A stretch of 64,000 nt of DNA, taken from Escherichia phage EPFV3-03/2025. Each line of letters starts with the position of its first letter. Within the stretch, counting starts at the first letter, position 1. Below, one piece after another: positions 34,303 through 57,292 of the stretch. The notes beneath the pieces are model-generated. The model searched no databases. It had not been told where the DNA came from and saw only the letters and a program-made list of their open reading frames with translations. The DNA is taken from sequence record PV435126.1; one strand, written 5' to 3'. The position numbers and the translations under genes were made by a program.

Positions 34303-34356
34303 AAAACTCAAGGGGGCAAGACGTTTGCCCCCACACAAAACAAAGAGGAAAACATC

Positions 34357-34737: not shown

Positions 34738-34746
34738 TCAGGTAAC

Positions 34747-34773
34747 AGGCGGCATATTTGCCGCCTTATTGTT
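34747..34773 (+). terminator. rho-independent terminator
   Basis: AGGCGGC-atattt-GCCGCCT stem-loop followed by TATTGTT. Confidence 0.6.
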
Positions 34774-34801
34774 AAACAGAACTGCAAAAGAGGTACATAG
34801 A

Positions 34802-35396: not shown

Positions 35397-35512
35397 CACC
35401 CAAGGATAAGCCCCGCACCGATAAGGTGCGCCGCGTTATGGTATGGCTTGAGATTATCGCCCTTGAAATATTGCTGGGCGTAGGGATGTACTTTATCGCT
35501 GTAAGTAACTAA
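35393..35512 (+). CDS. hypothetical small membrane peptide (39 aa)
   Basis: ATGA overlap with upstream stop; VMVWLEIIALEILLGVGMYFIAV; followed by terminator. Confidence 0.35.
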   Translation: MTPKDKPRTDKVRRVMVWLEIIALEILLGVGMYFIAVSN

Positions 35513-35516
35513 GAAC

Positions 35517-35543
35517 GGCCCCCGATCATGGGGGCCTATCTTT
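35517..35543 (+). terminator. rho-independent terminator
   Basis: GGCCCCC-gatcat-GGGGGCC stem-loop followed by TATCTTT. Confidence 0.65.
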
Positions 35544-35648
35544 AAAAAAAATTCTTCCGGGGTGTTGCAATCCGGTCCGGAATGTGGATAATAACAATCA
35601 ACGGGGAGCTAATCCCCACCACCACAAAAACCAGAAAGGAGAAACAAA

Positions 35649-35849
35649 ATGAGCAACAATATCCGCGTTATTAACTTCAAAAAAGAAGAAAAAATTGCCG
35701 TGCTGATTGACGGTCAAGAAATCTTCAAGGGCGACTATGAAGATCATCAAACGGCGATTAGTATCACTCGCGTAATTGGTTATCATAATTTCTACCCCCA
35801 AGGCGCTGAGGCAGCAGTTAAACGAATCAAAGAGATTGTAGGCCTGTAA
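35649..35849 (+). CDS. hypothetical protein (66 aa)
   Basis: ORF preceded by AAGGAG. Confidence 0.5.
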   Translation: MSNNIRVINFKKEEKIAVLIDGQEIFKGDYEDHQTAISITRVIGYHNFYPQGAEAAVKRIKEIVGL

Positions 35850-35851
35850 AA

Positions 35852-35897
35852 TTTATTTTTAGATGGCCTTGACTTCAGGGCCATCAATAAAGTAAAT
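35852..35897 (+). repeat. promoter-embedded palindromic repeat, copy 3
   Basis: tttatttttaGATGGCCttgacttcagGGCCATCaataaagtaaat; upstream of ORF 35941. Confidence 0.6.
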
Positions 35898-35940
35898 TTA
35901 AACCCTGTTAAAATAATCAGTGCAAAAAGGAGCAATGATC

Positions 35941-42691: not shown

Positions 42692-42907
42692 TCAGTCCAG
42701 CGGTTCATCCTCTACTTCACTGAAATCAATGTTCATGGTCTCTTCCCAACCATCGATCTCAGCACAAGAGTGGAGTTCTTTAGGGTTTACTCCCAAAGCC
42801 TCAGCAACAGAGTCTATATTTAACACCTCTGGCAGGTATGATTCATCGAATTCAAGGTAAATCAGGCCACGAGTGTTGTCAGCTCCACCAAATATTTCTA
42901 TCTTCAT
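42692..42907 (-). CDS. hypothetical acidic protein (71 aa)
   Basis: Last ORF of minus-strand block. Confidence 0.4.
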   Translation of the reverse strand: MKIEIFGGADNTRGLIYLEFDESYLPEVLNIDSVAEALGVNPKELHSCAEIDGWEETMNIDFSEVEDEPLD

Positions 42908-43027
42908 AAAATCTCCTCTGGGAATGAGAGTGTGAACAGGATTATACGTTCCAATGCACTGGAATTTATATACGTTTGCCTCTTCAGGCCATGCTTTAGC
43001 ATGATAAACTTGTGTGGGCTCGGTGCT

Positions 43028-43363
43028 TCATAGTCTGCCACCTCTGAACTCTTCGTTCTCAGGCATGATAGAGAACCAGATGGCTATGATGTCCTCCCAC
43101 GTCAGGTCATCAGCCTCAGGGTCCACCTGGGACGGAGATAGAGAATCCTCAGAATTGAAGTTTTTCTCTGCGGTCGCTTCTTCAGATGTCTCTTTAGGTG
43201 CATGTGTGTTGGTCATGTTCCACCCGTGAGTATTCCGGCAACAGCCGCTATGGACGTAATGATCATCAGGATCACCACCAAAACCTCGGACAATGTTTTC
43301 ATTGCGTATTCCATATTCTTCAAACGATGTGAGGATACTATCACAGGAGCTGTAATGTGTCAA
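43028..43363 (-). CDS. hypothetical acidic protein (111 aa)
   Basis: ORF in co-oriented minus-strand array. Confidence 0.45.
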   Translation of the reverse strand: MTHYSSCDSILTSFEEYGIRNENIVRGFGGDPDDHYVHSGCCRNTHGWNMTNTHAPKETSEEATAEKNFNSEDSLSPSQVDPEADDLTWEDIIAIWFSIMPENEEFRGGRL

Positions 43364-43575
43364 CAGAAACGCCGCGAGGGTTGGTTAAAATCCGAGCGTA
43401 TGGTGATTTGGGTCAAAACGGACGTGCGTTCTCGCTACGCTCGAAATAGAGAGTTGTTTGTAAGCAGCTCTTAAACGCTCTGTAATGATATTAACTACCT
43501 AAGGTATGGAATCGTGCACCAGATAAAGAAAAGGACGCCACAGAGCGTCCTAGGTGCCTTAAATTTGATATTTTG

Positions 43576-43887
43576 CTATACCCATGAGGGCTTGTCTAGG
43601 TTGGAGTAGCTGAAGGGGGTCAAAAGGTGACTGTCAAAATCTTTCAAACTGTCCAAGTCTTTTTCCTCGTCCTGACACCATCTGTGCCTGCATTTATTGT
43701 TGTAGTGCATGGAATGCATAGCGTTCTGCAACTTAACAGGTACAAGTGATTCAGGAGTAGATAGAATTGTTGGGTATGCCAGGACTATCTCAAACAATGG
43801 AAACACATCGAAACTGAAGTCTATTTCTGCTGAGGTTGCTGGCATATAGGAGTATTTAGCTGTCGTTGTAGACATAATCCACCTCAC
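43576..43887 (-). CDS. hypothetical protein (103 aa)
   Basis: ORF in co-oriented array. Confidence 0.45.
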   Translation of the reverse strand: MRWIMSTTTAKYSYMPATSAEIDFSFDVFPLFEIVLAYPTILSTPESLVPVKLQNAMHSMHYNNKCRHRWCQDEEKDLDSLKDFDSHLLTPFSYSNLDKPSWV

Positions 43888-44210
43888 ACAGGCTTGATAA
43901 TACCTTCACCGAATAACTCTTCATATTTAATCTTATCAGGATCCCACTCCTGGATAATTTCGAAGACAATATCCAGCCCAGGGATAATCACTTCTCCGGT
44001 ATCAAGTCTGGCAAGAACAAAACCGGAAGGTTGAATGGTTTCCCAGTTGCGACGATTAGAATAGATAACTTCGAAAATATCGCCAACCGCAATCTGTTGA
44101 TCAAGGTGTTCAAGATTCTCTTTCATATAAACGCAGCGTATTTTCCGTGCAGGCCACAGGCCCCCTGCATCACGTTTATTTAGCTCTTTTACAGTAATCG
44201 GCATTAGCAT
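43884..44210 (-). CDS. hypothetical protein (108 aa)
   Basis: ORF with ATGA overlap with downstream gene. Confidence 0.45.
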   Translation of the reverse strand: MLMPITVKELNKRDAGGLWPARKIRCVYMKENLEHLDQQIAVGDIFEVIYSNRRNWETIQPSGFVLARLDTGEVIIPGLDIVFEIIQEWDPDKIKYEELFGEGIIKPV

Positions 44211-44263
44211 TTCTGATCTTCTCCATAGATAGTAAAAAGAGGGGCCAAGACCCCTCTTCGTTG

Positions 44264-44569
44264 TTATTCTGCAGAGCGTTTGAACAGAATGTCTGCTTCA
44301 GACATGTGCTCAACCTCTTCTTCGATTTTAGCTCGACGTTTTTCAGCTTCGTAGCGGATATCGAATTCGGTAGCCACCAATGACTTGATAAACTTAGGAG
44401 AATACAGGTGATCCTGTTTCTCGACAAGAATAATATCCTTGATAGCGTCTTTCAGATCTTTAATCTGAAGCTGAAGTTCCACCAGCTCTTCAATTGTTTT
44501 ACGGAGGCGATCACGCTCTGCAGTGTCAGAAGGCAGAGAGGTGAACAGTTCAACTTTAGATTTAGCCAT
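44264..44569 (-). CDS. hypothetical protein (101 aa)
   Basis: ORF in co-oriented array. Confidence 0.45.
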   Translation of the reverse strand: MAKSKVELFTSLPSDTAERDRLRKTIEELVELQLQIKDLKDAIKDIILVEKQDHLYSPKFIKSLVATEFDIRYEAEKRRAKIEEEVEHMSEADILFKRSAE

Positions 44570-44597
44570 AGTAAGAGTCTCCTTATATTGTTTTAAA

Positions 44598-44849
44598 TTA
44601 ACGTTCTACAAAAATACCATTCAGTTCGATAACCAGGAATTTCTGATCTTCACTATCGTCACGTGCTAGCACCTCACAGACGTAACGGTCATCTCCGTCA
44701 TCATCACAGTCAAATACAAGGCTGAGGACTTTATCATGATAAATCTTCGACACTACTGCCTCGTAAGTATTGCCGATTGTGAATCCAAGATAATCCCCGA
44801 TGCATTTGACAACAACATGGTCGCCAGCATTTAAGTCAATCTTCGTCAT
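44598..44849 (-). CDS. hypothetical protein (83 aa)
   Basis: Start moved to ATG 44849 after AAGGAG. Confidence 0.45.
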   Translation of the reverse strand: MTKIDLNAGDHVVVKCIGDYLGFTIGNTYEAVVSKIYHDKVLSLVFDCDDDGDDRYVCEVLARDDSEDQKFLVIELNGIFVER

Positions 44850-45004
44850 TACTGTGCTCCTTGGGTGATAATATGGTATGTAAAACTTTAACCAGAGATG
44901 TGAATAACGCCCCAAAACACACAGATAGCGCTAAAACGGATAAGGCCATCATTAAAGCTTCAGTAAAATCAGTCATTCCTCACCTCTTGTTAGTAACTAT
45001 ACTA

Positions 45005-45268
45005 TCATTTATCTTCGCCGTCAAGAACTTTTTTAAATATCTCAGGAATATCTCCTGTTCTTAGATAGCTCATGACCTCCCAAGGTTTCCACTTGAACTT
45101 CTTGCACAGTAAGGCAGCCGAGATCGTCTCGTTGCGAAAAGAAAGGATATTAATATCCCACTCTGAGAACCCCAATTTCCGAAGAGTGGCTATAGAAATC
45201 CTCACAGCAACCCAACAAGAGAGGCACGCAACAAACGCCACTGCCACAACCCACATCAGGATGTTCAT
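45005..45268 (-). CDS. hypothetical membrane-anchored protein (87 aa)
   Basis: N-terminal hydrophobic helix ILMWVVAVAFVACLSCWVAV. Confidence 0.45.
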   Translation of the reverse strand: MNILMWVVAVAFVACLSCWVAVRISIATLRKLGFSEWDINILSFRNETISAALLCKKFKWKPWEVMSYLRTGDIPEIFKKVLDGEDK

Positions 45269-45357
45269 ACAGCCCCCTTAATGAAATACAAGGCATAGTG
45301 TTAAGGTTGCTACCCAGCAAATAATTAACAGTGCCGTTGCAACCTTGGCAAGATTTA

Positions 45358-45645
45358 TCATAGTGTCTCTAAAATTTCATACCCTTCGGGTCGGAAAACA
45401 AGCCACTCAGGTGCTCCATTTGGTCGATACGCTTTATACAGAACAACCTGATCTCGGCACATGCACATGGCTACATAGTTTTCATCAACACCTGCCTCCT
45501 GCATTGCATCTTCTTCTCCGGCAACAGCCTTGCTTACAACTTCCTTGGTAGGCAGGTGGGCGATCAGCTCGTCACCATCGTTAATTCCAAAATGACTGAG
45601 TTCTCCATTGGTATCTTTAATCTTGATCTTAACCAAATCTTTCAT
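45358..45645 (-). CDS. hypothetical protein (95 aa)
   Basis: ORF in tandem small-gene array. Confidence 0.45.
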   Translation of the reverse strand: MKDLVKIKIKDTNGELSHFGINDGDELIAHLPTKEVVSKAVAGEEDAMQEAGVDENYVAMCMCRDQVVLYKAYRPNGAPEWLVFRPEGYEILETL

Positions 45646-45974
45646 TAGTCTTCCTCCAGGTTCAAAGGTCCTAAGATTTCATATGCTAGATTAGAAGTTA
45701 CCAGAGGGTCTTCTGCATCTTTAGTATTATACCATCCGTGAATAACCAGAGTCCCACTTTGCTTCATGTCTAACTGGAACTGTTCTGCCGTTTCCTCATC
45801 CATCTCCAAGATCTCCATGAGGTATTTGATGTTAGGAAGGTATGCAGCTGTTACAGTCCCCTCTACCAGGCCTTCAGGCCAACCTACATCCGGATGACAA
45901 GTAGGGACCAGAGAGGTCAGCTTGATAGTGTATGCTTTTTCTGCACGAGCCTTCAGTAACGGATCAATTTTCAT
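45645..45974 (-). CDS. hypothetical protein (109 aa)
   Basis: ORF in tandem small-gene array. Confidence 0.45.
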   Translation of the reverse strand: MKIDPLLKARAEKAYTIKLTSLVPTCHPDVGWPEGLVEGTVTAAYLPNIKYLMEILEMDEETAEQFQLDMKQSGTLVIHGWYNTKDAEDPLVTSNLAYEILGPLNLEED

Positions 45975-46324
45975 TATTCTTCCTCCTCTTCGGTGCCTGC
46001 TTCCAGTAGTAAGTTAAGAACATCTTCAGCAGAAGGTTCGTAGAACTCTTGGCCTTCGTTGTCGATGATGCGATAGTCATCACCCCGAATAATCAGAGGA
46101 TCGTCATCAAAACCTTCAAGACCTTTAACAACGACAACACGGTCGATTGCCATCATTGTAAGAACTTTATCGACATCTTCCTCTGCTACACCATACTGCA
46201 GCAGAATGTCTTTGGTAGGAGGGACAGCATCCACCACAACACCGTTACCAAAACCTTCCGGAAGTTTAGCTAAAATATCTTCCGGAACCACATTCATATC
46301 AAAACCTGTGATCTCTACTTTCAT
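45974..46324 (-). CDS. hypothetical highly acidic protein (116 aa)
   Basis: Strongly acidic, ends GTEEEEE. Confidence 0.5.
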   Translation of the reverse strand: MKVEITGFDMNVVPEDILAKLPEGFGNGVVVDAVPPTKDILLQYGVAEEDVDKVLTMMAIDRVVVVKGLEGFDDDPLIIRGDDYRIIDNEGQEFYEPSAEDVLNLLLEAGTEEEEE

Positions 46325-46585
46325 TTACAGAACCTCTTCGTCAACTACTTCATAAAAATGGCTTGGGATTGCAATGGCGTTCTCGCCTTCACCTAAGAAC
46401 ACTGTCCCACTAACGATTAACATTAGAAGAACGTCTGCGATACCTTCCTCGGGGACGTTGCCAAAACCTTTAATCAGCTCGTAGGTTGGAAGATTTACCT
46501 CTAAGATGTCACCATCTTTGGAGCGGAAATCAACACCATCCTGAATCTCTGCCGTTTCAAGGTTTTTCAATTTAATCTTCATCAA
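46325..46585 (-). CDS. hypothetical protein (86 aa)
   Basis: N-terminus MMKIKLKNL and C-terminus YEVVDEEVL shared with neighbouring small ORFs. Confidence 0.45.
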   Translation of the reverse strand: MMKIKLKNLETAEIQDGVDFRSKDGDILEVNLPTYELIKGFGNVPEEGIADVLLMLIVSGTVFLGEGENAIAIPSHFYEVVDEEVL

Positions 46586-46661
46586 TCAGTCTCCTGTCTT
46601 GTTAAGATGAAGGTATTATTGCACACAGGGTTGGTGTTGTCAACACCTGTGTGGAATAAAA

Positions 46662-47057
46662 TTACTGAAACAGTGCAGATAAATTACCTTCTGGTGGGAA
46701 CTTATCTGCCAAGAACGGAGTCAGAACAGTGGCCTTCTGAAGATCTGGAGTCCACTCGTTGTTCAGAACATCCCAGTAGTACGCAATGTTGCTGTGTGGG
46801 TGCCGCATTACGAACTTTTTCCCTTCGTAGTCAGTTGAAACCTCTACAGAAGAAATAACAACAGAATCTTCAAGAGTTTCTTCATAGAAAGATCCACCCT
46901 CGAATTTCCAACGAGATGCAAGAGCTCCTGCCTTAAACGCTGCAGATAACGGACTGTCGGCAAGAACATACATTTCTTGCACTCTGTCGCTACGATCTTT
47001 GCTTCTTACGTTGTATACAGTATCTGAGCTATACTCAACACGGTATAGACTTACCAT
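46662..47057 (-). CDS. hypothetical protein (131 aa), paralogue of 48860..49258
   Basis: Shares HP-S..YYW..WTP segment with 48860..49258. Confidence 0.5.
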   Translation of the reverse strand: MVSLYRVEYSSDTVYNVRSKDRSDRVQEMYVLADSPLSAAFKAGALASRWKFEGGSFYEETLEDSVVISSVEVSTDYEGKKFVMRHPHSNIAYYWDVLNNEWTPDLQKATVLTPFLADKFPPEGNLSALFQ

Positions 47058-47389
47058 TACCGCACCTCCTCAATAACTTCCACATCTGAACCTACCACAA
47101 ATGCAAAAGGGCAGGTTTCATGAAAGACATCCGGATCGCCGCCAAGCTTGCTAACTATTTCTCCACCACTAATAAACACAAGCTCACCGATATTCATCAG
47201 ATTGCTGAAATAGTATCCATAATGATTAAAGAATGCAGCAGGGTCAGGCAGACTAGTAGCCTCAAGCTCTACATCGGTTGAGATTACTTTCTTATCATAC
47301 CCTCTGGCCTTTTGAGATGCAAGATCTGCAGAATCCTCAGGCGACCGGAGATGCACAGGAATTGTTTCACCAATAAAGCGTACTTTCAT
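47057..47389 (-). CDS. hypothetical protein (about 110 aa)
   Basis: Start moved to internal ATG (MKVRFIGE); C-terminus VGSDVEVIEEVR. Confidence 0.45.
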   Translation of the reverse strand: MKVRFIGETIPVHLRSPEDSADLASQKARGYDKKVISTDVELEATSLPDPAAFFNHYGYYFSNLMNIGELVFISGGEIVSKLGGDPDVFHETCPFAFVVGSDVEVIEEVR

Positions 47390-47393
47390 ATTC

Positions 47394-47657
47394 TCACCCA
47401 ACAACCATAGCTTCAAAAGGGGTCATAAACGAATAAACAGCATTATCATCTGCTTCAGGAAATGCCCCCAAAGACTTCATGTCTGAGCCCTTGACAAATA
47501 CAAGGTTCTGATCAAAAGCTTCTTGTGGATCAATCCGATACATATTTCGTAGGGTATCACTTACCTCATCATCAAGAGGCGAGTATGCTGTGCACGTTTT
47601 TCCAATCAAGCTTTGAGAATCAGGGTATCCACCTGAAGTTTTAAAATAAACAATCAT
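47394..47657 (-). CDS. hypothetical protein (87 aa), GxDLxxAGA-like family
   Basis: VFVKGSDMKSLGAFPE resembles the shared motif of family at 49271/49515/53168. Confidence 0.45.
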   Translation of the reverse strand: MIVYFKTSGGYPDSQSLIGKTCTAYSPLDDEVSDTLRNMYRIDPQEAFDQNLVFVKGSDMKSLGAFPEADDNAVYSFMTPFEAMVVG

Positions 47658-47745
47658 ACAGTATCACCTCTGGTAAGAGATGGGGATTCCTTTCCCACAA
47701 ATAATTACAAACCTTTCTTGTCGAGGAAGTATGGCTAACCCAAGA

Positions 47746-48015
47746 TTACTCCTCTACAACCTCATACACATCCGGAGTTACAATCAACTCTTCTCCGTTG
47801 CCTGGAGCAACAAACACTACCAAACCTTCCGGTGTGTGCTTTTTAGCCATCTCGATGACATCTTCTCGCAGAGCTGGCTCCATCAAATCAAAACCTTCAC
47901 CCAGAGCATCACGAACCACCTTCATGTAGTCCACTGGTTGTGCTTCAACGATCATGCCTTCAACCAGTCCGCAGTTTTTGTCTGCCAGCTCAGTTTTGAA
48001 TAATTTAATTTTCAT
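47746..48015 (-). CDS. hypothetical protein (89 aa)
   Basis: N-terminus MKIKLFKT and C-terminus YEVVEE as in neighbouring small ORFs. Confidence 0.5.
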   Translation of the reverse strand: MKIKLFKTELADKNCGLVEGMIVEAQPVDYMKVVRDALGEGFDLMEPALREDVIEMAKKHTPEGLVVFVAPGNGEELIVTPDVYEVVEE

Positions 48016-48152
48016 TTAGAGGTCTCCTCAATTATTTGATATTAATAGCCGTAACCTAACACATTAACTACAACTGCGATTGCAAACATAATTTCAAAGC
48101 ATGCAATCTCTACATTTGGGACTAATTTCTTAATCATACCCATTGTAGCACC

Positions 48153-48470
48153 TCAATCCCAAAAGTCAATCTTTACTTTACCTTTTCCCTTACCTTTCTT
48201 TCCACCGCATTTAGCCAACTGGCGTGCTGCAACATCCACCATACGGTCAGTTGCCTCGTAAGCATCGCTACCTTTAGCTTTGGCGATAACTTCTTTCCCA
48301 GAATTGTCAAAAATAAAAGCCATAACTTCCTGGTGATCATTTTCAACTTTTACACTCACACGTGCATAGTTGGCAGATGGGTGCAAACGCTCCAGTTTGG
48401 ACATTTTGTGGGAAATGAAAGACACCATACCTTCAGTGATCTCTACGTTGCCAGTGATTTCAATCTGCAT
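48153..48470 (-). CDS. hpf: ribosome hibernation promoting factor (HPF/YfiA-family) homologue (105 aa)
   Basis: MQIEITGNVEITEGM..KLERL...VSVKVEN and GSDAYEATDRMVDVAARQLAK align along the length with E. coli HPF (MQLNITGNNVEITEAL...VVLKVEK...GQDMYAAIDGLIDKLARQLTK), recalled from memory. Confidence 0.75.
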   Translation of the reverse strand: MQIEITGNVEITEGMVSFISHKMSKLERLHPSANYARVSVKVENDHQEVMAFIFDNSGKEVIAKAKGSDAYEATDRMVDVAARQLAKCGGKKGKGKGKVKIDFWD

Positions 48471-48551
48471 AACGTGCTCCTTTTAAAGAAGAGGGAACCA
48501 AACCCTCTTTGAAAATAATGATACTAAAGATCAAATGTTGTGTCAACAGTT

Positions 48552-48842
48552 TTACAGCTTGTCGTCGATAGTTTTTAAAATATCTACTGCAAGATCTGCC
48601 ATTTTACGAACATACTCTGCAAACTCAACAGGATCCTTGATCAATGAGTTCACAGGGTCGTACCCTAGAGCGTTCAAAATGGCTGCAGCATCTACAACCT
48701 TCTCATCATTTGCGAAGATCTCTCCGTCAAACTTGTAGGTCCATTTTGAGTCAATCTTGGCAGGGAAGGATTGGTCAACGCTTGTTACACCATCCTTTTT
48801 AAACGCTCCGGGGTTATCAGTGTCCAGAACTAAATCCATCAT
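48552..48842 (-). CDS. hypothetical protein (96 aa)
   Basis: ORF in co-oriented array. Confidence 0.45.
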   Translation of the reverse strand: MMDLVLDTDNPGAFKKDGVTSVDQSFPAKIDSKWTYKFDGEIFANDEKVVDAAAILNALGYDPVNSLIKDPVEFAEYVRKMADLAVDILKTIDDKL

Positions 48843-48859
48843 GTTAGTACCTCACTGTT

Positions 48860-49258
48860 TCAGTTTAGCTTTTCTTCAACAACCCCATAACTTGGGGCAG
48901 AGTCAAGAGCTTTCTGGTTTAAAAGTGGCGTAGCAGAATCTGCAAACGGTGTCCAAGTTTTTGTTCTGGCATTCCAGTAATGCTTCACTCTAGAATCTGG
49001 ATGCACTATAACAAAAACTTTTTCACTTGTCAACACATTAATTTCTTCCACACCCTTGCTGATAATTTCTCCGTCATATCCTCCGGTCTGGTATCCTTCG
49101 TACCAGGTTCTTGCATAGGCATAGCCAGCCTGCCAGCATGCAGCCTCCTCCGAGGTGGAGACTACGTAGAAGTCTTTCTCAAATTCTGGGATACGCCCTT
49201 GCTTTACGCTCCAAGCTCCGCGAATTTTCATTGTAACTTTGAACAGTTTGTTTTTCAC
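48860..49258 (-). CDS. hypothetical protein (132 aa), paralogue of 46662..47057
   Basis: VIVHPDSRVKHYWNARTKTWTP parallels VMRHPHSNIAYYWDVLNNEWTP. Confidence 0.5.
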   Translation of the reverse strand: MKNKLFKVTMKIRGAWSVKQGRIPEFEKDFYVVSTSEEAACWQAGYAYARTWYEGYQTGGYDGEIISKGVEEINVLTSEKVFVIVHPDSRVKHYWNARTKTWTPFADSATPLLNQKALDSAPSYGVVEEKLN

Positions 49259-49270
49259 AACGGTTACCTA

Positions 49271-49525
49271 TTACAGCTCTACAATATCTGCATCTGACCC
49301 TGCCCCAAAGGCATAATAGGACTCTTTCCCGAAATAATATTCAGGTGCACCAGCGGCGATCAGGTCTGATCCTAAGATAAACACCACGTTGTGGCCTACA
49401 TAACTATGATGTTGCCGCACAGGATCATCCCACGGTAACCCTTCAAAGTATACCGCAGGAACGACCTTTCCCTTCAGGAAGGATTGTCCCAAGTAGACGT
49501 TAGAATCAAGAATTTTAACCTTCAT
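49271..49525 (-). CDS. hypothetical protein (84 aa), GxDLxxAGA family
   Basis: MKVKILDSNVYLGQ...ILGSDLIAAGA...DIVEL. Confidence 0.5.
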   Translation of the reverse strand: MKVKILDSNVYLGQSFLKGKVVPAVYFEGLPWDDPVRQHHSYVGHNVVFILGSDLIAAGAPEYYFGKESYYAFGAGSDADIVEL

Positions 49526-49742
49526 GATCGTCCTCCACTATCTCTACATCCTCACCTAGGGCAAAGTTGTAGGTCCACTGACTGTCAAAGCAGTCCTGAG
49601 ATGCACCAGCGGCAATAAGATCTGCTCCTTTTATTTTTAAAAGGTCAGGGTAATCTTCGTTAGGGACAGCAGTAAACACTTTTCCTACTAAAGGCTCCTG
49701 ACCAATATAGAAGCTTGAATCTAAAACTTTAACTTTCATCAA
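49515..49742 (-). CDS. hypothetical protein (75 aa), GxDLxxAGA family
   Basis: MMKVKVLDSSFYIGQ...IKGADLIAAGA...EIVEDD; tandem to 49271..49525. Confidence 0.5.
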   Translation of the reverse strand: MMKVKVLDSSFYIGQEPLVGKVFTAVPNEDYPDLLKIKGADLIAAGASQDCFDSQWTYNFALGEDVEIVEDDHEG

Positions 49743-50026
49743 CGGTCTCCATCAGGTGGTTGTGGGACGTAAACACTGTTACGAATATCGTCCGCAGTAT
49801 AGTAATAAGTGTCTCCAACCCTATCTCTGGCTGCAATGTACTCTGCTATACCAATAAGTGCCATTGATTTGGTGGCGTATCTTCCCAACTCGTTAGCTCC
49901 CCAGTAGAATTTAGACCAATAGGGAATAAGACCGAACAAATATACCTTTTGACGAACTTCCCAGTAAGTGCCTTTCCCGACAAGTTTAAACTCGACTTCA
50001 CCACTGTTAATCTTTTTCATTATCAA
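49739..50026 (-). CDS. hypothetical protein (95 aa)
   Basis: ORF with ATGA overlap. Confidence 0.45.
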   Translation of the reverse strand: MIMKKINSGEVEFKLVGKGTYWEVRQKVYLFGLIPYWSKFYWGANELGRYATKSMALIGIAEYIAARDRVGDTYYYTADDIRNSVYVPQPPDGDR

Positions 50027-50319
50027 TCTCCCTCCACCGTGGTCGGATTGTCAGTAAGAAATTGAGCATTAGCTGGAGGCACACCTGACATTTTCCACAC
50101 AACCATAAGTTTGTAACCCGGAACCCTATTAAGTGCAGATCGAGTAGAGTTTGTGCACGTATACTTTCGCTTTCCAAACCCGTTCTCCATCATAATCCAG
50201 TACCCAGTATCTTTGTCACCAGGTATCGGTAGACCACCTTCATCAACCCACTGAATGGACCACGGCACGATGGCTACAGCTTTATATTTAAACTTTTTAA
50301 ACCACTCAAAAAGTTTCAT
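50023..50319 (-). CDS. hypothetical protein (98 aa)
   Basis: ORF with ATGA overlap. Confidence 0.45.
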   Translation of the reverse strand: MKLFEWFKKFKYKAVAIVPWSIQWVDEGGLPIPGDKDTGYWIMMENGFGKRKYTCTNSTRSALNRVPGYKLMVVWKMSGVPPANAQFLTDNPTTVEGD

Positions 50320-50414
50320 AATTCAGCCCCGCATAGACATAATCACTATAAACAGGCAAATAATAAATCCGAATGCCACGCCACCCATAAACGTTAATAT
50401 TGATGCAATCATAG

Positions 50415-50600
50415 TCAATCAGCCTCGCTTGGCAACTCTTCTACCTTAACATGCCGAAAAGTGTTACCGTAATGGTTGATCCATGACATCAGCTCGCTTT
50501 CTTGCTCTTCCTCTGGGATGAACTCTCGAATGCTGACAAGTTTTAAGAAAACCCAATCACAATCTGCACCCATTCTACCAGACAGGCAATAGTGCTTCAT
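50415..50600 (-). CDS. hypothetical protein (61 aa)
   Basis: ORF in co-oriented array. Confidence 0.35.
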   Translation of the reverse strand: MKHYCLSGRMGADCDWVFLKLVSIREFIPEEEQESELMSWINHYGNTFRHVKVEELPSEAD

Positions 50601-50618
50601 AAAACCCTCCCGCCTGGT

Positions 50619-50813
50619 TTAGAATATTGCTTCTTCCATTGCACCTGAGAGCAACAAAGAGGTGATCTGGCTAACATTCATCTCAGACTCTACTTCCTCC
50701 CCTTTGAAAGGTTCGCGGCAGAATAGGACTGTTTCAGGACTTTTACTTCGAACAATATAATACAAATCATTCAATGTGTTGTAGTAATAAGTGTTAAAAC
50801 GTAAGTTTTTCAT
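50619..50813 (-). CDS. hypothetical protein (64 aa)
   Basis: ORF in co-oriented array. Confidence 0.35.
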   Translation of the reverse strand: MKNLRFNTYYYNTLNDLYYIVRSKSPETVLFCREPFKGEEVESEMNVSQITSLLLSGAMEEAIF

Positions 50814-51097
50814 TTTCTAGTCCCCTTCTTAGATTTTTGTGTAGAAACGCTTTCTGCAATACGAGACAAACGTTCTTCTGAAGCCTTGCCTATTCCAGGT
50901 TTTTTGAGTGGATTATCTTTATGACCACAATCCAATTGGATATTGGATACCTCTCCAACCTTGTAAGTCAATTCTAGCAAAAGGTTGTCGTCCTTGTCAA
51001 ATGTTCTTACGATAAATTTTTTATCGTTCTCCTGAACTTCATATCTGGTACCTGCAGTATACAGCATGGTGCCATCAGCATAGGATATCCAGATCAT
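50810..51097 (-). CDS. hypothetical protein (95 aa)
   Basis: ORF with ATGA overlap at both ends. Confidence 0.45.
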   Translation of the reverse strand: MIWISYADGTMLYTAGTRYEVQENDKKFIVRTFDKDDNLLLELTYKVGEVSNIQLDCGHKDNPLKKPGIGKASEERLSRIAESVSTQKSKKGTRK

Positions 51098-51459
51098 TGA
51101 GCCTCCTTCTGCTGCAACAGCATTAACTCTTTGTTAGAGATCTTTACTGCTGTTTTTATTGTTCCGTCTTTACGGAACCACGACCAGAACTCTACAGTGT
51201 CCCCACTATCAAGCAAAGCATACCCGTGGTAGAAGTCTTTGTCCTTAGACAGTTTCTCATCTATGTCTGCATCGACACATTCGTGATCCATAGCATTTTG
51301 CCTGAATGCATCGGTTATGCCAATGCACGCCTTGCTCTCAAGACTGGTATATCCGGTATCTTTTAATTCGGTTTCCCAAACCCAGTATCCTGCAAAAGCT
51401 ACGACAGTTACCAGCCCCATAGCAGCTACCAACTTTAATACCGATTTAATCTTTGCCAT
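51094..51459 (-). CDS. hypothetical membrane-anchored or secreted protein (121 aa)
   Basis: N-terminal hydrophobic segment LKLVAAMGLVTVVAFAGYWVW. Confidence 0.45.
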   Translation of the reverse strand: MAKIKSVLKLVAAMGLVTVVAFAGYWVWETELKDTGYTSLESKACIGITDAFRQNAMDHECVDADIDEKLSKDKDFYHGYALLDSGDTVEFWSWFRKDGTIKTAVKISNKELMLLQQKEAQ

Positions 51460-51519
51460 TCTCTCTACCTCTTTCTTAACTTATTTAACTATGGCACATC
51501 CTTTGTGCCTCATTGCACA

Positions 51520-51981
51520 CTACTTAAACAACAATTCAAAATAGTGAAAAATTAACAGAAGTTGAATTACGCCCAGCACAACGGCAAGTATGTTAATCTT
51601 AGAATCAAAAAACTTCTTAACTTTTACTCTAAAAGGTTCCTTAATGTCCTTTACGATCCTATCTATAGATGACCTCATATCTCTGATTACCATCCTGAAC
51701 ATTAAAGACGGATGATCCTTCTCTGTAACGGAATCGAAAACATACTCTCTTTGATCATAAGGGCCGCCAGCTCTGCGTATTAACCTCTCCACAGAGACCT
51801 CGAACGTCACACCTGTAACGTAATCATCTATGACAAGTAGTGACGGGTCTTTACCATCAAGAGGCATCAAAGTTATCTTTCCAGATTTTGTTAAAATTTC
51901 TCCTTTTTCAAGTAAGGTGTACCAATGCTCTCTGCCAAGGCTGTTGAGGCACGTTTTTACATATTTAACAAACATCGTCAC
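51520..51981 (-). CDS. hypothetical protein with C-terminal hydrophobic helix (153 aa)
   Basis: C-terminal ILAVVLGVIQLLLIFHYF. Confidence 0.45.
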   Translation of the reverse strand: MTMFVKYVKTCLNSLGREHWYTLLEKGEILTKSGKITLMPLDGKDPSLLVIDDYVTGVTFEVSVERLIRRAGGPYDQREYVFDSVTEKDHPSLMFRMVIRDMRSSIDRIVKDIKEPFRVKVKKFFDSKINILAVVLGVIQLLLIFHYFELLFK

Positions 51982-52181
51982 CCCTCATCGCACGTCTGAT
52001 ATAACCACTCTATGAAATCTTGATACCATTCGCCCTCTGAGCGCTCCGTAGGCCAATAATCTTCACCCTCTCGTGCATTAAAATCTGAGTATTCAACTTT
52101 CCACTCCTTTACCAGCTCGTGGAGAAGGTTTTCAGCCTGCTCTAAAGATTTATTTTTTACCATTGCTGTCTCCTTTTTCAA
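51978..52181 (-). CDS. hypothetical protein (67 aa)
   Basis: ORF with ATGA overlap. Confidence 0.4.
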   Translation of the reverse strand: MKKETAMVKNKSLEQAENLLHELVKEWKVEYSDFNAREGEDYWPTERSEGEWYQDFIEWLYQTCDEG

Positions 52182-52382
52182 GATAGTTATACATCAGAAC
52201 TGCACCACCTAAGATGGCTACCAGTAACAATATCCCAGATAGCATCTCAATAAACATGGCTTGAAACACTGAAAGGTCTCCCTAAATTAACGCACCATTT
52301 TAAATACATGCTCTTTTCCCATAAAGGTGCCTGGCTAAGATCTGCGTAGAACGCAATCTCTTTAAGAACAGTATAGATAGTT

Positions 52383-52610
52383 TTAGGTGCGGTCTCCATC
52401 CCTACTCTCCTTCCGGATATTCTTGTAGTAATCGACTAGGCACATTATTACGATGAAGATAACAACAGGCCAAAAAGGTGCAGCAGTGATGATGGTGATA
52501 AAATCATCAAACTTCACCCTTCGTCTGGACACGATGCATATACCTGTCAAGAATACCGCTGTTATAACGGATATTACCAAGTAACCTATTAGCACAACAT
52601 TTATACTCAT
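52383..52610 (-). CDS. hypothetical membrane protein (75 aa)
   Basis: Two hydrophobic helices. Confidence 0.4.
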   Translation of the reverse strand: MSINVVLIGYLVISVITAVFLTGICIVSRRRVKFDDFITIITAAPFWPVVIFIVIMCLVDYYKNIRKESRDGDRT

Positions 52611-52640
52611 TAGCCCTCCCTTTGTAGGTTAAATTTTATA

Positions 52641-53171
52641 CTACAGATGGTTGCTTATGGTGTCAAGAAAATTATCCCGTTCTTTCTTGGAGTTTTCACG
52701 GGTGTAGCTGAAAAACATATCTAGAATAACCTTATTGATATATTCCAGCTCCTCTGTGTTCAGGTACTTAGCAGGATCTACAATGACATCCCAAGTCTCA
52801 TACAGACCGCACTCATGATAACCCCAACGCTGCTCAATTGTCAAGCTGAGCGGCAAATCTTTACCGTCACAAACAACCTTCCATCTACAAATGCTGGTAT
52901 CTGGGCACACCTGTGTACGGTATACCTGTACAAAATCCAATCTGAATTTGAGGTACTCGTCATACAATTTAAGCACAAAGCTCTCGATTTGTGGAGACAC
53001 TTTTGCAGCAAACTGTGCGTATTTATACTTGCACTGGATGATCTTTCTGCGTTTTGCAGTTAAATTTTTTGCAGCCAGTTGTTCTTCAGTGTATCTCCAC
53101 CGATCAACAAACGCAACAGGGTCTTTGTCCCCATAAAGGTCTTCCCAGTTAATCAGAAGCATACCTGTCAC
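52641..53171 (-). CDS. hypothetical protein (176 aa)
   Basis: ORF in co-oriented array. Confidence 0.5.
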   Translation of the reverse strand: MTGMLLINWEDLYGDKDPVAFVDRWRYTEEQLAAKNLTAKRRKIIQCKYKYAQFAAKVSPQIESFVLKLYDEYLKFRLDFVQVYRTQVCPDTSICRWKVVCDGKDLPLSLTIEQRWGYHECGLYETWDVIVDPAKYLNTEELEYINKVILDMFFSYTRENSKKERDNFLDTISNHL

Positions 53172-53401
53172 TCCTCCACAACTTCAAGACCTTTACCGCC
53201 TCGCTCTGGCAGATTACTTAAAGACAGGTAATACGTATAGTCAGGAGAGATCCTGCCAGACTCTGCACCTGCAGATAGTAAATCTTTTCCCTTAACCATG
53301 ACAACATTATCGTTTGCAGATAGTCGTTTTGCTTCCACAATTTTACCAACGCAGTCAACCAAGGAAGGGTACCCTAAATCTGTAAGAAATTTAACTTTCA
53401 T
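53168..53401 (-). CDS. hypothetical protein (77 aa), GxDLxxAGA family
   Basis: MKVKFLTDLGY...VKGKDLLSAGA...LEVVEE. Confidence 0.5.
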   Translation of the reverse strand: MKVKFLTDLGYPSLVDCVGKIVEAKRLSANDNVVMVKGKDLLSAGAESGRISPDYTYYLSLSNLPERGGKGLEVVEE

Positions 53402-53440
53402 GCTACCTCCTACTTCTACCGTCCCTGGTAAGATAAATTA

Positions 53441-53839
53441 TTACTGAACAAAGCGCGGAGCTGGGAAGGATAACTCTTCTAAAGAGAAGATTTCATTCCC
53501 CACAATCCATGTTGCAGGATCATCTGGGTTGACTGGATAGATAATCATCACCTCGTCAGTGTTACATACCCGCTTTTTACCTGTGGAGTCATCAGCAACC
53601 AGCATGCGCGGTTCTTCAGAAATGCACAAGTATCCTCCTCGGCCCACTGTTCCTTCCACAGGATCTTGTCCTTTGATCACGATGATTATCTTCTCTCCTG
53701 AGGCGATATTACCTTGCACACTCACCGTTTGACCAACCTTGGATGTGCCAATCTTAGTGACTTCGAACATTACATCCCGAATTACTGTTGCATAATCGCC
53801 AGACACTTTCTTACCTTCTTTAGTGATCTCAATCTTCAT
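53441..53839 (-). CDS. hypothetical protein (132 aa)
   Basis: ORF in co-oriented array. Confidence 0.5.
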   Translation of the reverse strand: MKIEITKEGKKVSGDYATVIRDVMFEVTKIGTSKVGQTVSVQGNIASGEKIIIVIKGQDPVEGTVGRGGYLCISEEPRMLVADDSTGKKRVCNTDEVMIIYPVNPDDPATWIVGNEIFSLEELSFPAPRFVQ

Positions 53840-54075
53840 ACACTGGGCTCCTTAAATGAATCTATGTAATCAATTAAATCCCAAGCATCCCTATGACCTG
53901 TCAGAGGGTATACTTCTCCAAGAGGGATCATAGCAATAAGTCTATCAAAAACCCAGTCTGGACGCAACATTTTATGATGATATTCCCACTCACCTTCTAC
54001 AGACTTTTTCTGAGTGATCAGAATCTCTGTGTAGTGTTTTGCCTGTCTTGAGTAGATTGAAAATGACTTGTACAT
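53836..54075 (-). CDS. hypothetical protein (79 aa)
   Basis: ORF with ATGA overlap. Confidence 0.4.
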   Translation of the reverse strand: MYKSFSIYSRQAKHYTEILITQKKSVEGEWEYHHKMLRPDWVFDRLIAMIPLGEVYPLTGHRDAWDLIDYIDSFKEPSV

Positions 54076-54112
54076 AGATGACCCCCCCTCTTGTTGAAAA
54101 CAAAATACACTA

Positions 54113-54397
54113 CTACCAGGTTACTGTCAAGTAGGCAACCGTGTTATTTTTCTCCGGAGAGATGCCAACAACATCCACCTGCAGACCTCCTGCCCTCAAA
54201 TCCCCAACGATGTGTGGGAAGTAGTCTGAGAGGTGCGATGGGAGATTTATCGAAAATCCGCATCCCAGAAAGCCTGCTAACGCTTTATTTTGTATCTCCC
54301 CTACAATCGCATCATAAATGGAGTTAAGCTCGTCAGGGAGCGTTACAGGGCGTTTTAGCGCTAACTGGTGCAACTTGTCCTTAGCACTCATTTTCAT
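54113..54397 (-). CDS. hypothetical protein (94 aa)
   Basis: Start moved to ATG 54397 giving ATGA overlap with methyltransferase stop. Confidence 0.45.
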   Translation of the reverse strand: MKMSAKDKLHQLALKRPVTLPDELNSIYDAIVGEIQNKALAGFLGCGFSINLPSHLSDYFPHIVGDLRAGGLQVDVVGISPEKNNTVAYLTVTW

Positions 54398-54927
54398 TTC
54401 AGGTCTACCTCTGGAGGTGCCAACCACATAAATGGCGGCAGGTCTAAACGGTTCTTCTTGTCCCACACAAAATATGCATATGCTTGCCCGTCAGTTCTGC
54501 CATTTGATTGGAATGATGGACGCTTAGATATTGTGATCACAGTGGTAGGTGCATTATCAAGCCACCATTCAAATCTGGCTTTGCTTTCCAGAAAATTAAG
54601 ACGCAAAAGCATAATAACTACGTCAGCATCTTTCAACGCCTTGTCTACAAACTCACGAGCCAGGCTGTACGGTGGGTTGGTGATAATACAGTCAACATGG
54701 TTGTATTCTGTATTCAGATAGTCAACACCTTCTTGGATTTCTCCCCATGCAGATCCTAACGGCATACGGGAGTAGAACACACCTGAGGCGCTATTTCTGC
54801 AAGGCTCTAGGTAGGTCCAGTCTTCTGGGAACGGAATAAGGTCATACAGCCCTTCTGCACACCACTCCGGTGTCACATACTCGTCGTAAGCGTTACGTTG
54901 TTCATCAGGTTTTCTAGCACAAGTCAT
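54394..54927 (-). CDS. putative DNA N6-adenine methyltransferase, phage Dam-like (177 aa)
   Basis: TPEW...LEPC...CIITNPPYS catalytic NPPY motif. Confidence 0.5.
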   Translation of the reverse strand: MTCARKPDEQRNAYDEYVTPEWCAEGLYDLIPFPEDWTYLEPCRNSASGVFYSRMPLGSAWGEIQEGVDYLNTEYNHVDCIITNPPYSLAREFVDKALKDADVVIMLLRLNFLESKARFEWWLDNAPTTVITISKRPSFQSNGRTDGQAYAYFVWDKKNRLDLPPFMWLAPPEVDLK

Positions 54928-54978
54928 GCAAATCTCCAGATCATAAAAGCCCTCCGAAGAGGGCTTTAGAATTAATGT

Positions 54979-56028
54979 TTAAGCTTCTTCGACAATTCCT
55001 GCACCCAGGATTTTTTCATTGAGCTCTTTTGCTGTTTTAATAATATTGTCCACCAGACGCTTGCGGGTCTTATCTTTAACCTGAACTTCTTCACCTCCGT
55101 TCAGGGTGGTTTTCAATTGGGACAAAATGTCCTGAAGCTCTACCACAGAGAATCGCTGCAGATCTTCCGAGGTAATCTCACCAAGTGCAATCTTAACGGT
55201 CTCACCGCTCTCCATCTGTAGATTCAGGAACACAGTGTGAACATCACCTTTCACACCATTTGCTTTTGCAGACTCAACAGCATGAACCAGCTCGTCCAGA
55301 GATGTGCATTGGTGAATCTCTGGCAGGCCTGCTTCACCTAGCACACCTTCTTCATCACTTTTTGCCAAAAGCTTTTTCGGTTTCTGTCCATTCTGAATGC
55401 GCTGAATGTTTTCATCGTCCAGAATGATAGCACCAGTTCGAGATGCCAGCTCTTCTCCATCTAACCACACTTCGCCACCAGCTGTGATGGATGCGATTTC
55501 ATCTTCTGTTAACACCCCACCGTAGTATTTTTCAATCAGGCGTTCAAAACGTTTCTTCCAGTAGTTGATCTGGGTATTCATGTTCACACCGTTACCATAG
55601 GTGCCACCTTGATAGTAGTGGAACATAAATTCTGTGTCCGGAGCTACAGTTCGTTCTTTGCAACCCAGCCATAAGATTGTTCCTGCCGAGCAGCACATCC
55701 CTTCAGCGTGTACAACAACGCTTGCCTGAGACTCGCGGAATGCCTGCAAATACGCCATAGCAATGTGAACGCAACCACCGGGGCTGTTAATGATTACACG
55801 GATACTTTCTTCTGGCTGTGCCATACGAATTGTTTGCAAACGGGACATATGATCCTGCAAATCTTCAAGATCGTCAATATAAAGAACGTGGTCAACAACA
55901 GGTGTTGGGTAGCTGTATGTTTCCATAATACCACCCGGCATACCAAACATTTTGTTACTCATAGGTTCGAAACCGTTCTGTTTTTCTTTCATGCCGTGTA
56001 CCATGGTGCTGCGAGGTGTTAAATTCAT
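54979..56028 (-). CDS. ClpP-family serine protease with C-terminal extension (349 aa)
   Basis: IRVIINSPGG, GMCCSAGTIL (Ser nucleophile) and FMFHYYQGG (His) parallel ClpP INSPGG / GQAASMGAFLL / VMIHQPLGG. Confidence 0.75.
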   Translation of the reverse strand: MNLTPRSTMVHGMKEKQNGFEPMSNKMFGMPGGIMETYSYPTPVVDHVLYIDDLEDLQDHMSRLQTIRMAQPEESIRVIINSPGGCVHIAMAYLQAFRESQASVVVHAEGMCCSAGTILWLGCKERTVAPDTEFMFHYYQGGTYGNGVNMNTQINYWKKRFERLIEKYYGGVLTEDEIASITAGGEVWLDGEELASRTGAIILDDENIQRIQNGQKPKKLLAKSDEEGVLGEAGLPEIHQCTSLDELVHAVESAKANGVKGDVHTVFLNLQMESGETVKIALGEITSEDLQRFSVVELQDILSQLKTTLNGGEEVQVKDKTRKRLVDNIIKTAKELNEKILGAGIVEEA

Positions 56029-56088
56029 GAGAAATCCTTAATATTGGAAGTTGAAAGCTATTTATTTAAACCTGATTCACATTTACCT

Positions 56089-56400
56089 TTATTTAGCAAT
56101 CACTATAGAATACTTACGATTGTCAGAAGCATCACAGCTCAATGATTGCCAGTCTACCACATACCACGTATCATTGTCAACAATTACTTTATCGCCTGTT
56201 CTGTAGCAGGTGCTGCTTTCAATAATCCTAGACTCGATAAAGAATCTGTGTCGGCGCTCACGTAGCAACGCTAAGTTGATTATATTACCACCACTGTCCT
56301 TGGTCCACACATTCTTGGATCCTTTATTTGCCAAAATTGTCTCGCCGTTATATACAAACAGGCAGTATATTTTATTCAGTCTCTCTTGTATTGTAGCCAT
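56089..56400 (-). CDS. hypothetical protein (103 aa)
   Basis: Start moved to ATG 56400 after AAGGAGAAGG and downstream of promoter 56431-56459. Confidence 0.45.
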   Translation of the reverse strand: MATIQERLNKIYCLFVYNGETILANKGSKNVWTKDSGGNIINLALLRERRHRFFIESRIIESSTCYRTGDKVIVDNDTWYVVDWQSLSCDASDNRKYSIVIAK

Positions 56401-56430
56401 ACTGTGTCCTTCTCCTTGTTTTGTCCAATA

Positions 56431-56459
56431 ATAATATCTAAAGCTCACCTGTTTGTCAA
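56431..56459 (-). promoter_or_regulatory. sigma70-type promoter (minus strand)
   Basis: -35 TTGACA (rc of 56454-56459), 17-bp spacer, -10 TATTAT (rc of 56431-56436). Confidence 0.5.
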
Positions 56460-56503
56460 CAACTGTTTTAGATATTTAAGGGTGGAATAACCACCCTTCT
56501 GTA

Positions 56504-57292
56504 TTACTCGGAAACAGGAGTCCAAATATGATTTGCACGATCCTCAATAAGATTGAGTGCAATCTGACGGCCTAACCCGGAACGAACGACATCGTCTGGA
56601 CTATCAAAGCTAATCATTCCAACCTCAGGATCTGGATGACGCGTAAAGAAATCTGTCACCCATGCAAGGCCAGATTTACCAGGGATGTCACGTTGGCTGT
56701 TATCGCCCATAATTACAAGGGTGGCCTGATCAGAGATCCTTGTGATAATTGACAACATTTCTTCAGGATTGGTTTGCTGTGCTTCATCAATAAGGACAAA
56801 GCATCGTTCATCAAAACTACGACCACGAATGCTTTCAACCTCACAAATCTCGATACGGCTGTTCTGACCGTCCCCAAGCATTGCTGCAAAAGCACCTTTG
56901 CCAACACGACGACAAATCGTGTCCATCATGCTTCTAAGATAGGGCCACAGTTTCTGCATTGCATTTCCAGGTTTAAATCCTGAAGTCTTTCCTGTCTGAA
57001 CGTAAGGGCGTGCAACAATGATCTTATCAATCTCGTTCTTGCGCAGAAGATCCCCCGCATATGCAGATGCCATGAATGTCTTACCGGATCCAAACACACC
57101 GTTTACAATGATAATCTTACGCGACCCTAGATAATCAAGATACTTTTGCTGCTTTTTATTCATTGGTCGGAGAGCTGGAGCGGTGTGCTCTCGTTCGTCA
57201 GCAAATTTTTCAGCAGCCTTACGCAGGCGATCAGATTTGCGAGCCTCTCTAGCTTCATCACGCATGCGTTTTGTTTCTTTAGCTCGACCCAT
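56504..57292 (-). CDS. phoH: PhoH-like ATPase (262 aa)
   Basis: Walker A GVFGSGKTFMA; VLIDEAQQT; PhoH-like conserved C-terminal region. Confidence 0.85.
   Translation of the reverse strand: MGRAKETKRMRDEAREARKSDRLRKAAEKFADEREHTAPALRPMNKKQQKYLDYLGSRKIIIVNGVFGSGKTFMASAYAGDLLRKNEIDKIIVARPYVQTGKTSGFKPGNAMQKLWPYLRSMMDTICRRVGKGAFAAMLGDGQNSRIEICEVESIRGRSFDERCFVLIDEAQQTNPEEMLSIITRISDQATLVIMGDNSQRDIPGKSGLAWVTDFFTRHPDPEVGMISFDSPDDVVRSGLGRQIALNLIEDRANHIWTPVSE

Follow-up and report, generated by a model that had tools for sequence, protein, structure and literature searches.

The window analysed here, i.e., a stretch of 64,000 nucleotides (nt) of Escherichia phage EPFV3-03/2025 (PV435126.1), carries five small minus-strand genes, referred to as A, B, C, D and E, which are almost certainly true paralogs and form an expanded protein family (family 1). 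The best explanation of the whole, in which our confidence is evenly balanced, is a lineage-specific expansion of a stand-alone, mostly acidic domain with a predicted SH3-like core of approximately 70 amino acids (aa), combined with a function as binding modules. The window belongs to an rV5-like Vequintavirus, and the 8 kb around these genes share 94-95% identity with the genomes of more than 100 E. coli myophages of this genus. The rV5-like phages are broad-host-range coliphages in use for phage therapy and biocontrol work.

Family 1 and the evidence of paralogy

Gene B (49515..49739, 74 aa from MKVKVL, ORF140 of phage rV5) encodes the shortest, "minimal" version of the family-1 domain, and it stands in tandem with A (49271..49525, 84 aa, rV5 ORF141), the 3' end of B and the start of A sharing 11 nt. 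Gene C lies at 53168..53401 (77 aa, rV5 ORF127), E at 47394..47657 (87 aa, rV5 ORF147) and D at 47057..47389 (110 aa from MKVRF, rV5 ORF148). The stop of D overlaps the start of the next gene, and the junctions in this region are tight or overlapping. A sequence-only reading of the window had named A, B, C and E as a family of small paralogous proteins, and these four open reading frames (ORFs) are indeed present at these positions on the minus strand.

When the 383 window ORFs of at least 45 aa were compared by BLASTP, A matched B with 42% identity (E = 7e-14), C matched B with 31% identity (E = 3e-6), and the C-terminal 40 aa of D matched B with 30% identity (E = 2e-3). Smith-Waterman alignment yielded z scores of 26 for A-B, 15 for B-C, 8.5 for B-D, 7.6 for A-C, 7.4 for A-D, 6.7 for C-E and 5.1 for A-E, and in none of these pairs was the observed score reached by any of 300 shuffles. 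The similarity is hence well above that of shuffled controls, which is the comparison by which the sequence-only reading had proposed to be refuted.

The strongest test, with a profile hidden Markov model (HMM), agrees with this result. The HMM was built from 59 distant metagenomic relatives from outside the window and covers strands 1-5 and the GxELIxAGA helix described below; given these relatives were themselves collected with a profile seeded with window sequences, the test is not fully independent. It matches exactly five of the 661 window ORFs, namely B (E = 9e-25), C (1.4e-18), A (3.2e-15), E (7.8e-7) and D (2.9e-5), while the next best ORF scores 0.4, a gap of more than four orders of magnitude between the members and the remaining ORFs. 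That the similarity arose by chance, or that the ORFs are non-functional filler, might be argued from the shortness of the proteins and from how common MK starts are, yet z scores of up to 26 that no shuffle reaches, the HMM separation, ratios of nonsynonymous to synonymous substitution rates (dN/dS) of about 0.1 and conservation of the genes in more than 100 genomes make this explanation practically negligible.

The members differ in how far they have diverged. A, B and C are full-length members of phrog_5009 in the PHROGs database (E = 1e-31, 1.1e-38 and 8.5e-36, respectively), where the cluster is labelled "unknown function". E is divergent: its match to phrog_5009 is weak (E = 1.4e-4) and confined to profile positions 1-49, it has its own phrog_13920, and it contains an insertion of approximately 21 aa between strands 2 and 3, the same loop in which the alignment places approximately 15 inserted residues in A. 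D has no phrog_5009 match and forms the separate phrog_13661. An insertion of tens of residues separates its N-terminal strands from a conserved C-terminal half, residues 69-108 of which align to the family alignment with an hhalign probability of 87% (E = 3.9e-6), and its N-terminal MKVRF strand aligns with the other members in the family alignment.

The pattern G-x-[DE]-[LIM]-x3-G-[AG] is found in A, B, C, E and one unrelated ORF, against 0.26 ORFs expected from shuffles. E, with GSDMKSLGA, fits the literal motif (I/V)KG(S/A/K)DL(I/L)(A/S)AGA of the sequence-only reading only loosely.

Predicted fold and the second family

Both B and the family-2 protein F, introduced below, were modelled with AlphaFold2 from family alignments, yielding a predicted local distance difference test score of 92.7 and a predicted template modelling score of 0.80 for B, and of 92.9 and 0.72 for F. 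The structure prediction suggested in the sequence-only reading thus gives confident SH3-like models for both. The SH3-like assignment is based on five antiparallel strands in a small barrel and on structural similarity to solved SH3, KOW and PsaE domains, and each family is predicted to adopt an SH3-like five-stranded barrel.

In the B model the strands span residues 2-5, 21-23, 33-37, 56-61 and 65-69, and the GADLIAAGA motif corresponds to a short helix at residues 38-43. The conserved family-1 core opens with strand 1 (MKVKLL) and a GGYxG loop; strand 2 (GKVVxA) and strand 3 come next, the latter leading into the short helix (GxELIxAGA), and the segment FxxxxxYxF and a last strand ExEVVEE complete it. 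The loop between strands 2 and 3 has approximately 6 residues in B and C, and roughly 20 in A, 27 in E and 50 in D. F presents the same strand order as B, but its strands 2 and 3 are separated by an inserted helical stretch of approximately 30 residues, so that length variation falls in the same loop in families 1 and 2. In the two models, the MK(V/I)K(I/L) start forms the first strand of the barrel and the acidic end the last.

Three other domain assignments were considered and rejected. For a KOW domain (NusG/Spt5/L24), there is no Pfam KOW match among the window members or 51 family members. For a canonical or bacterial SH3 domain, no family of the Pfam SH3 clan is found at E <= 0.1-1. For an ankyrin repeat, designed repeat proteins in the PDB match only weakly (E = 8.7e-4 to 1.8) and over just the LIxAGA-like stretch, no Pfam Ank match exists, and the model is a beta barrel.

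The sequence-only reading had also added neighbouring ORFs to the family on the basis of the MK start and the acidic end. Both features occur together in five ORFs against 0.000 expected from shuffles, the pattern having been chosen post hoc. Among the neighbours so proposed, the ORF at 47057 (D) is a member, whereas F (47746) and G (46325) are part of a second family, and what had been presented as a single family is therefore two sequence families merged. F and G are not detected by any family-1 profile (E = 2.9 for G with the distant-relative HMM).

Family 2 comprises F (47746..48015, 89 aa, rV5 ORF146) and, in a contiguous array at 45358..46582, G (46325-46582, rV5 ORF150), H (45974-46324, rV5 ORF151), J (45645-45974, rV5 ORF152) and I (45358-45645, rV5 ORF153/154), all on the minus strand. 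HMMs built with one group left out retrieved every omitted member at rank 1 of 661 ORFs (E = 3e-5 for F, 4.7e-6 for G, 3.6e-8 for H, 4e-3 for J and 2.1e-9 for I), the best non-member scoring 0.43 or worse, and the pairwise Smith-Waterman z scores within the family are 3.6-5.5. In a Foldseek search, the F model resembled a 95-aa Vequintavirus protein (E = 2.9e-3, TM score 0.56), which is probably the I ortholog.

It may be that family 2 is a very remote branch of the family-1 stock. In the corresponding reading, the ten genes of both families, within approximately 8 kb, form one superfamily descended from a single SH3-like ancestor, and family 2 carries a helical insertion in a loop that is already variable in A, E and D. 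This is a serious possibility, though less likely than not. The hhalign probability between the families is 9-17%, covering the N-terminal strands only, and for this reason common ancestry is not claimed. In addition, family-1 HMMs find no family-2 member, nor the reverse, no family-1 protein could be identified when F was compared with viral models by Foldseek, and small SH3-like barrels arise often, making convergence plausible.

Distribution, expansion and recombination

A profile search of 1.84 billion representative proteins yielded 81 family-1 clusters (at 50% identity, E <= 1e-3), most of them stand-alone proteins of 63-90 aa, with the consensus MKVKLLNDGGYxGLxxVIGKVVEA...ILGSELIAAGA...FDPDYxYxF..GEEVEVVEE. 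When B alone was used in a word-indexed search, only Vequintavirus orthologs were recovered; an alignment query and the exhaustive profile search reached further. Some relatives carry two or three tandem family-1 domains (P0042, P0043 and P0084), others have extra C-terminal regions, and in one metagenomic protein the family-1 domain is joined to DUF3310 (PF11753, E = 2.6e-20). Family 1 has no Pfam or NCBIfam match, the PDB sequence search returned no credible relative, and the PADLOC profiles match none of ten proteins compared with them.

The relatives reached by searching other phages with such profiles, as the sequence-only reading had suggested, lie in phage or prophage contexts wherever the context is readable. 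Among cultured phages, they occur in Vequintavirus, the mEp021 group of temperate coliphages and a handful of others. The mEp021-group temperate phages and prophages have one family-1 copy per locus read, and C is the window copy nearest to their gene. In mEp021 and MagusPhagus the gene belongs to a series of small genes lying downstream of the gene for the Q antiterminator. Of 5,426 complete E. coli genomes, 23 carry the mEp021-type prophage gene, each with one copy on the chromosome. More generally, family-1 genes elsewhere sit among small accessory genes, either after Q or beside helix-turn-helix (HTH) or RNA-ligase genes. The longer metagenomic contexts are phage-like, adjoining portal, terminase, HTH or RNA ligase genes, while the contigs of distant members are 1-9 kb, for which the context can be read just as "phage, among small genes". 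No related locus was found in genome contigs for one relative (P0030). The search thus defines a domain absent from Pfam and found here only in phage and prophage contexts. As a separate observation on the records matched, 18 "Campylobacter phage" entries in GenBank MG065635-MG065690 (host C. jejuni), two of which are listed at approximately 95% identity, match as typical Vequintavirus, and their C. jejuni host label looks doubtful.

Two further genes in the window form family 3 (phrog_7379, function unknown): one of 132 aa at 48860..49258 (rV5 ORF142), directly downstream of B-A, and one of 131 aa at 46662..47057 (rV5 ORF149), directly downstream of E-D, both on the minus strand. They share 28% identity over 119 aa (BLASTP, E = 6.5e-7). 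The cassette family 1 - family 1 - family 3 is hence present twice, as B-A-ORF142 and E-D-ORF149. A tandem duplication would have given B-A, and the gene order suggests an old segmental duplication of the three-gene cassette.

All copies of family 1 (five), family 2 (five) and family 3 (two) are present in each Vequintavirus locus examined (n = 7). A sister lineage (L049-L053) is syntenic, with roughly 60-70% amino-acid identity to the rV5-like phages. In the roughly 10 kb fetched per side, it contains from family 1 only the C ortholog (10001-10234 in L049), together with one family-3 gene. Given this composition, A, B, D, E and the second family-3 gene appear to be specific to the rV5-like genus. 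The same lineage has three or four clustered, diverged family-2 genes in the syntenic place (E = 6e-18 to 2.8e-7), as found with a family-2 HMM built without its sequences.

Metagenomes also contain hybrids of these genes. Two natural fusions in Vequintavirus-like contigs (P0006 and P0007) join B residues 1-46 to the C-terminus of A at GADLIAAGA. Deletion variants (P0040 and P0041) also occur: they comprise an internal deletion of A and a deletion by which A residues 1-21 are fused to the C-terminus of the 48552-48842 product, the 48860-49258 gene being thereby removed in some phages. A further hybrid, P0008, combines the N-terminal half of the mEp021-type prophage gene with the C-terminal half of B. 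Its crossover lies in a 14-nt run common to all three sequences, ATTGCCGCTGGTGC, inside the IAAGA codons; the longest identical run between A and B is just 12 nt, at the same place. The two metagenome contigs carrying P0008 (L056 and L057, matching window positions 48374-49634) are three-way mosaics, in which an upstream ORF and its DNA with 81% identity to Salmonella phage SPJ41 precede the hybrid, whose B half is followed by downstream Vequintavirus genes. An assembly artefact is ruled out by the occurrence of P0008 in two independent samples and by the 14-nt shared run, assembler k-mers normally being longer than 14 nt. It would follow that the copies still recombine with each other and with the prophage homolog via microhomology at the AAGA codons, and hybrid genes of this kind indicate that halves of a gene can be exchanged between a lytic phage and resident prophages via 12-14 nt of microhomology.

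Part of this was already known, since the genes are deposited and clustered as PHROG 5009, an automatic phage cluster that contains A, B and C, places E and D in separate families (satellites phrog_13920 and phrog_13661), and gives no function or fold. What is new is the delimitation of the families, together with the hybrid genes joined at the motif, the lineage-specific expansion, the prediction of an SH3-like fold and the recognition of a wider domain family. The rV5 genome paper makes no mention of paralogs, duplications, gene families, a lineage-specific expansion or a link to mEp021-group prophages, and nothing on these genes was found in the literature on rV5 paralogs, Vequintavirus anti-defence, Vequintavirinae RNA-seq and mEp021.

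Selection, genomic setting and possible function

For A, B, D and E, comparison with 7-11 related loci gives a pairwise dN/dS of 0.07-0.12; the ratio could not be computed for C, whose synonymous sites are saturated in distant loci. The corresponding values are 0.04-0.32 for family 2, and the median of the surrounding genes is near 0.09. The family-1 genes are functional and under ordinary purifying selection. The sequence-only reading had connected the family's diversification with an arms race: the expansion itself stands, as a lineage-specific one, but an ongoing arms race is not supported, given that dN/dS is like that of neighbouring genes. Gene-wide pairwise dN/dS shows no sign of one, and the retention of all five copies in each Vequintavirus locus examined also counts against it. 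The paralogs are old and each is conserved; their old divergence (25-42% identity) is compatible with past diversification.

The genes belong to a minus-strand run that extends from approximately 43.8 kb to the window end, part of a stretch in which, according to the rV5 genome paper, there are 88 ORFs that are mainly small. In the records read, nearly all genes of this block are named "hypothetical protein" or "Phage protein"; the record annotations also include a ClpP-like protease, a PhoH-like protein and a methyltransferase. Twelve of the approximately 36 genes examined (43.9-56.4 kb) are members of the three paralogous families, the order in the direction of transcription being B-A-family 3 ... 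F-E-D-family 3-G-H-J-I. With twelve genes assigned to three families, two of which have a confidently predicted SH3-like fold, the problem posed by this block shrinks to a few testable protein types.

A promoter scan of window positions 43000-57000 found 46 sigma70-like sites against 27.9 +/- 5.3 expected, the coding strand holding 14 of the 15 best. Several of these sites coincide with promoters annotated in the rV5 record, and strong ones fall in the few intergenic gaps (e.g., 46643-46615, 48546-48518, 54130-54102 and 56459-56431). Two of them, both on the minus strand, correspond to P150 and P144 of the rV5 annotation: an extended -10 promoter, TTGACA-17-AATAAT, 5' of the G-H-J-I array (46615..46643), and TTGACA-17-TATCAT (48518..48546) 5' of a gene for a homolog of the ribosome hibernation factor HPF/RaiA (S30AE). 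The latter gene (48153-48470, minus strand; PF02482, E = 1.8e-12) sits between the two family 1 - family 3 cassettes with this promoter as its own, and it is already annotated in rV5-like records. The portion of the sister lineage L049 that was fetched shows no HPF homolog.

Other repeats and small ORFs were noted in the window. On the plus strand, tandem paralogs occur at 21126/21497/21721 (within 21126-21915, E = 3e-4 to 3e-5) and at 22374/22632 (within 22374-22964, E = 2e-7); these sets belong to PHROGs of unknown function, with cross-matches between phrog_12544 and phrog_11936. A 61-nt intergenic repeat with a palindrome-like GATGGCC...GGCCATC is present four times on the plus strand in the region 31500-35898 (at 31500, 32126, 32458 and 35838), and a 71-nt promoter-like element (TTGACA-17-TATACT) is present twice (31713 and 33558). 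These repeats explain a spurious 22-aa match between the minus-strand ORFs 32071-32235 and 35792-35935. Four small minus-strand ORFs (53441-53839, 44598-44849, 43884-44210 and 42692-42907) have MKIEI or MK-type starts or GD-x-V...G..Y patterns, which suggest, from sequence, further small beta-barrel proteins; none of the four has a sequence link to family 1 or 2.

Taken separately from the expansion, the functional part of our preferred explanation is tentative: the family-1 proteins may be non-enzymatic protein-binding modules acting on host proteins or on those of competing phages. Under this explanation, the genes would be driven by host-type promoters of a non-structural accessory block, and their products would act stoichiometrically as protein-binding modules, neither catalytic nor virion-building. 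A face common to the paralogs would consist of the conserved GGYxG loop and the GxELIxAGA helix, while the variable loop would give each paralog its own host or competitor target. The outcome would be host take-over or counter-defence, a role that we propose with low confidence. The proteins are acidic, with isoelectric points (pI) of 4.05-5.4 in family 1 and 4.05-4.6 in family 2, C being only mildly so with a net charge of -1.5. Besides their small size and acidity, the explanation is favoured by the sigma70-like promoters of the block, by the lack of family-1 peptides in the rV5 virion data, by the small accessory genes around relatives elsewhere and by the fusion of one relative to DUF3310.

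Several points weigh against this picture. The link between families 1 and 2 exists at the fold level only, and the purifying selection equals that of the neighbours, without the rapid evolution expected of arms-race genes. In mEp021-type phages, the location of the gene downstream of Q points to late transcription and not to early. The cassette duplication is seen in gene order only, and B, A, E and D do not fall into clean one-to-one pairs by similarity.

A role as virion or assembly accessories (i.e., decoration proteins, scaffolds or chaperones) would find precedent in the SH3-like domains known in phage structural proteins, and the mEp021 homolog adjoins a gene annotated as "virion structural protein". 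However, the window genes lie in a minus-strand block of small genes with sigma70-like promoters, away from the structural module, and none of six diagnostic family-1 peptides is present in the supplement of the rV5 virion mass spectrometry study, so we judge such a role very unlikely. The proteins might instead imitate KOW or Rof-like barrels and in this way influence transcription or translation, binding S10/NusE, Rho or the ribosome rather than defence proteins and acting alongside the phage HPF of the block; this we consider unlikely.

A bolder version of the binding-module explanation, which strikes us as improbable, treats all ten proteins as one ancient phage-specific superfamily of acidic "adaptor/decoy" barrels that constitutes a fixed battery of inhibitors of host factors or defence. 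The GGYxG/GxELIxAGA face would dock a common host machine and the hypervariable loop would set the target, the battery having been built by cassette duplication and still exchanging modules with prophage copies at the motif. The five genes of family 1 and the five of family 2 are concrete candidates for screens of toxicity, for pull-downs and for panels of defence systems.

Paralogous expansions of small accessory genes are familiar in large phages. In T4, amplification of tifA reportedly increases the copy number of a counter-defence gene by recombination. The likeness lies in a small accessory gene expanded by recombination in a lytic coliphage, short-homology hybrids being found here too. 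In contrast with tifA, no defence system is known as the target of the copies described here, which are ancient (with the 25-42% identity given above), genus-wide and individually conserved.

Ocr, ArdA, Arn and gp5.9 are acidic DNA-mimic or decoy inhibitors, and the family-1 proteins resemble them in being small, strongly acidic phage products of a non-structural region. They differ in that no sequence match was obtained in any library, and in that a compact barrel is predicted instead of an elongated DNA-like surface. DUF3310 occurs in SaV, a toxic protein made early by a lactococcal phage, and in T7 gp1.7, and proteins with this domain are also described as a nucleotide kinase. The likeness to these proteins consists of the one metagenomic family-1 fusion, a weak hint through guilt by association, while the window proteins themselves lack DUF3310.

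In comparison with other SH3-like barrels, i.e., eukaryotic SH3, the KOW domains of Spt5/NusG, PsaE and the C-terminal domain of retroviral integrase, the likeness of family 1 is one of fold class only, with no sequence relationship (4-25% identity and no Pfam match). The conserved GxELIxAGA helix after strand 3 and the GGYxG loop are specific to family 1 and distinguish it from these barrels.

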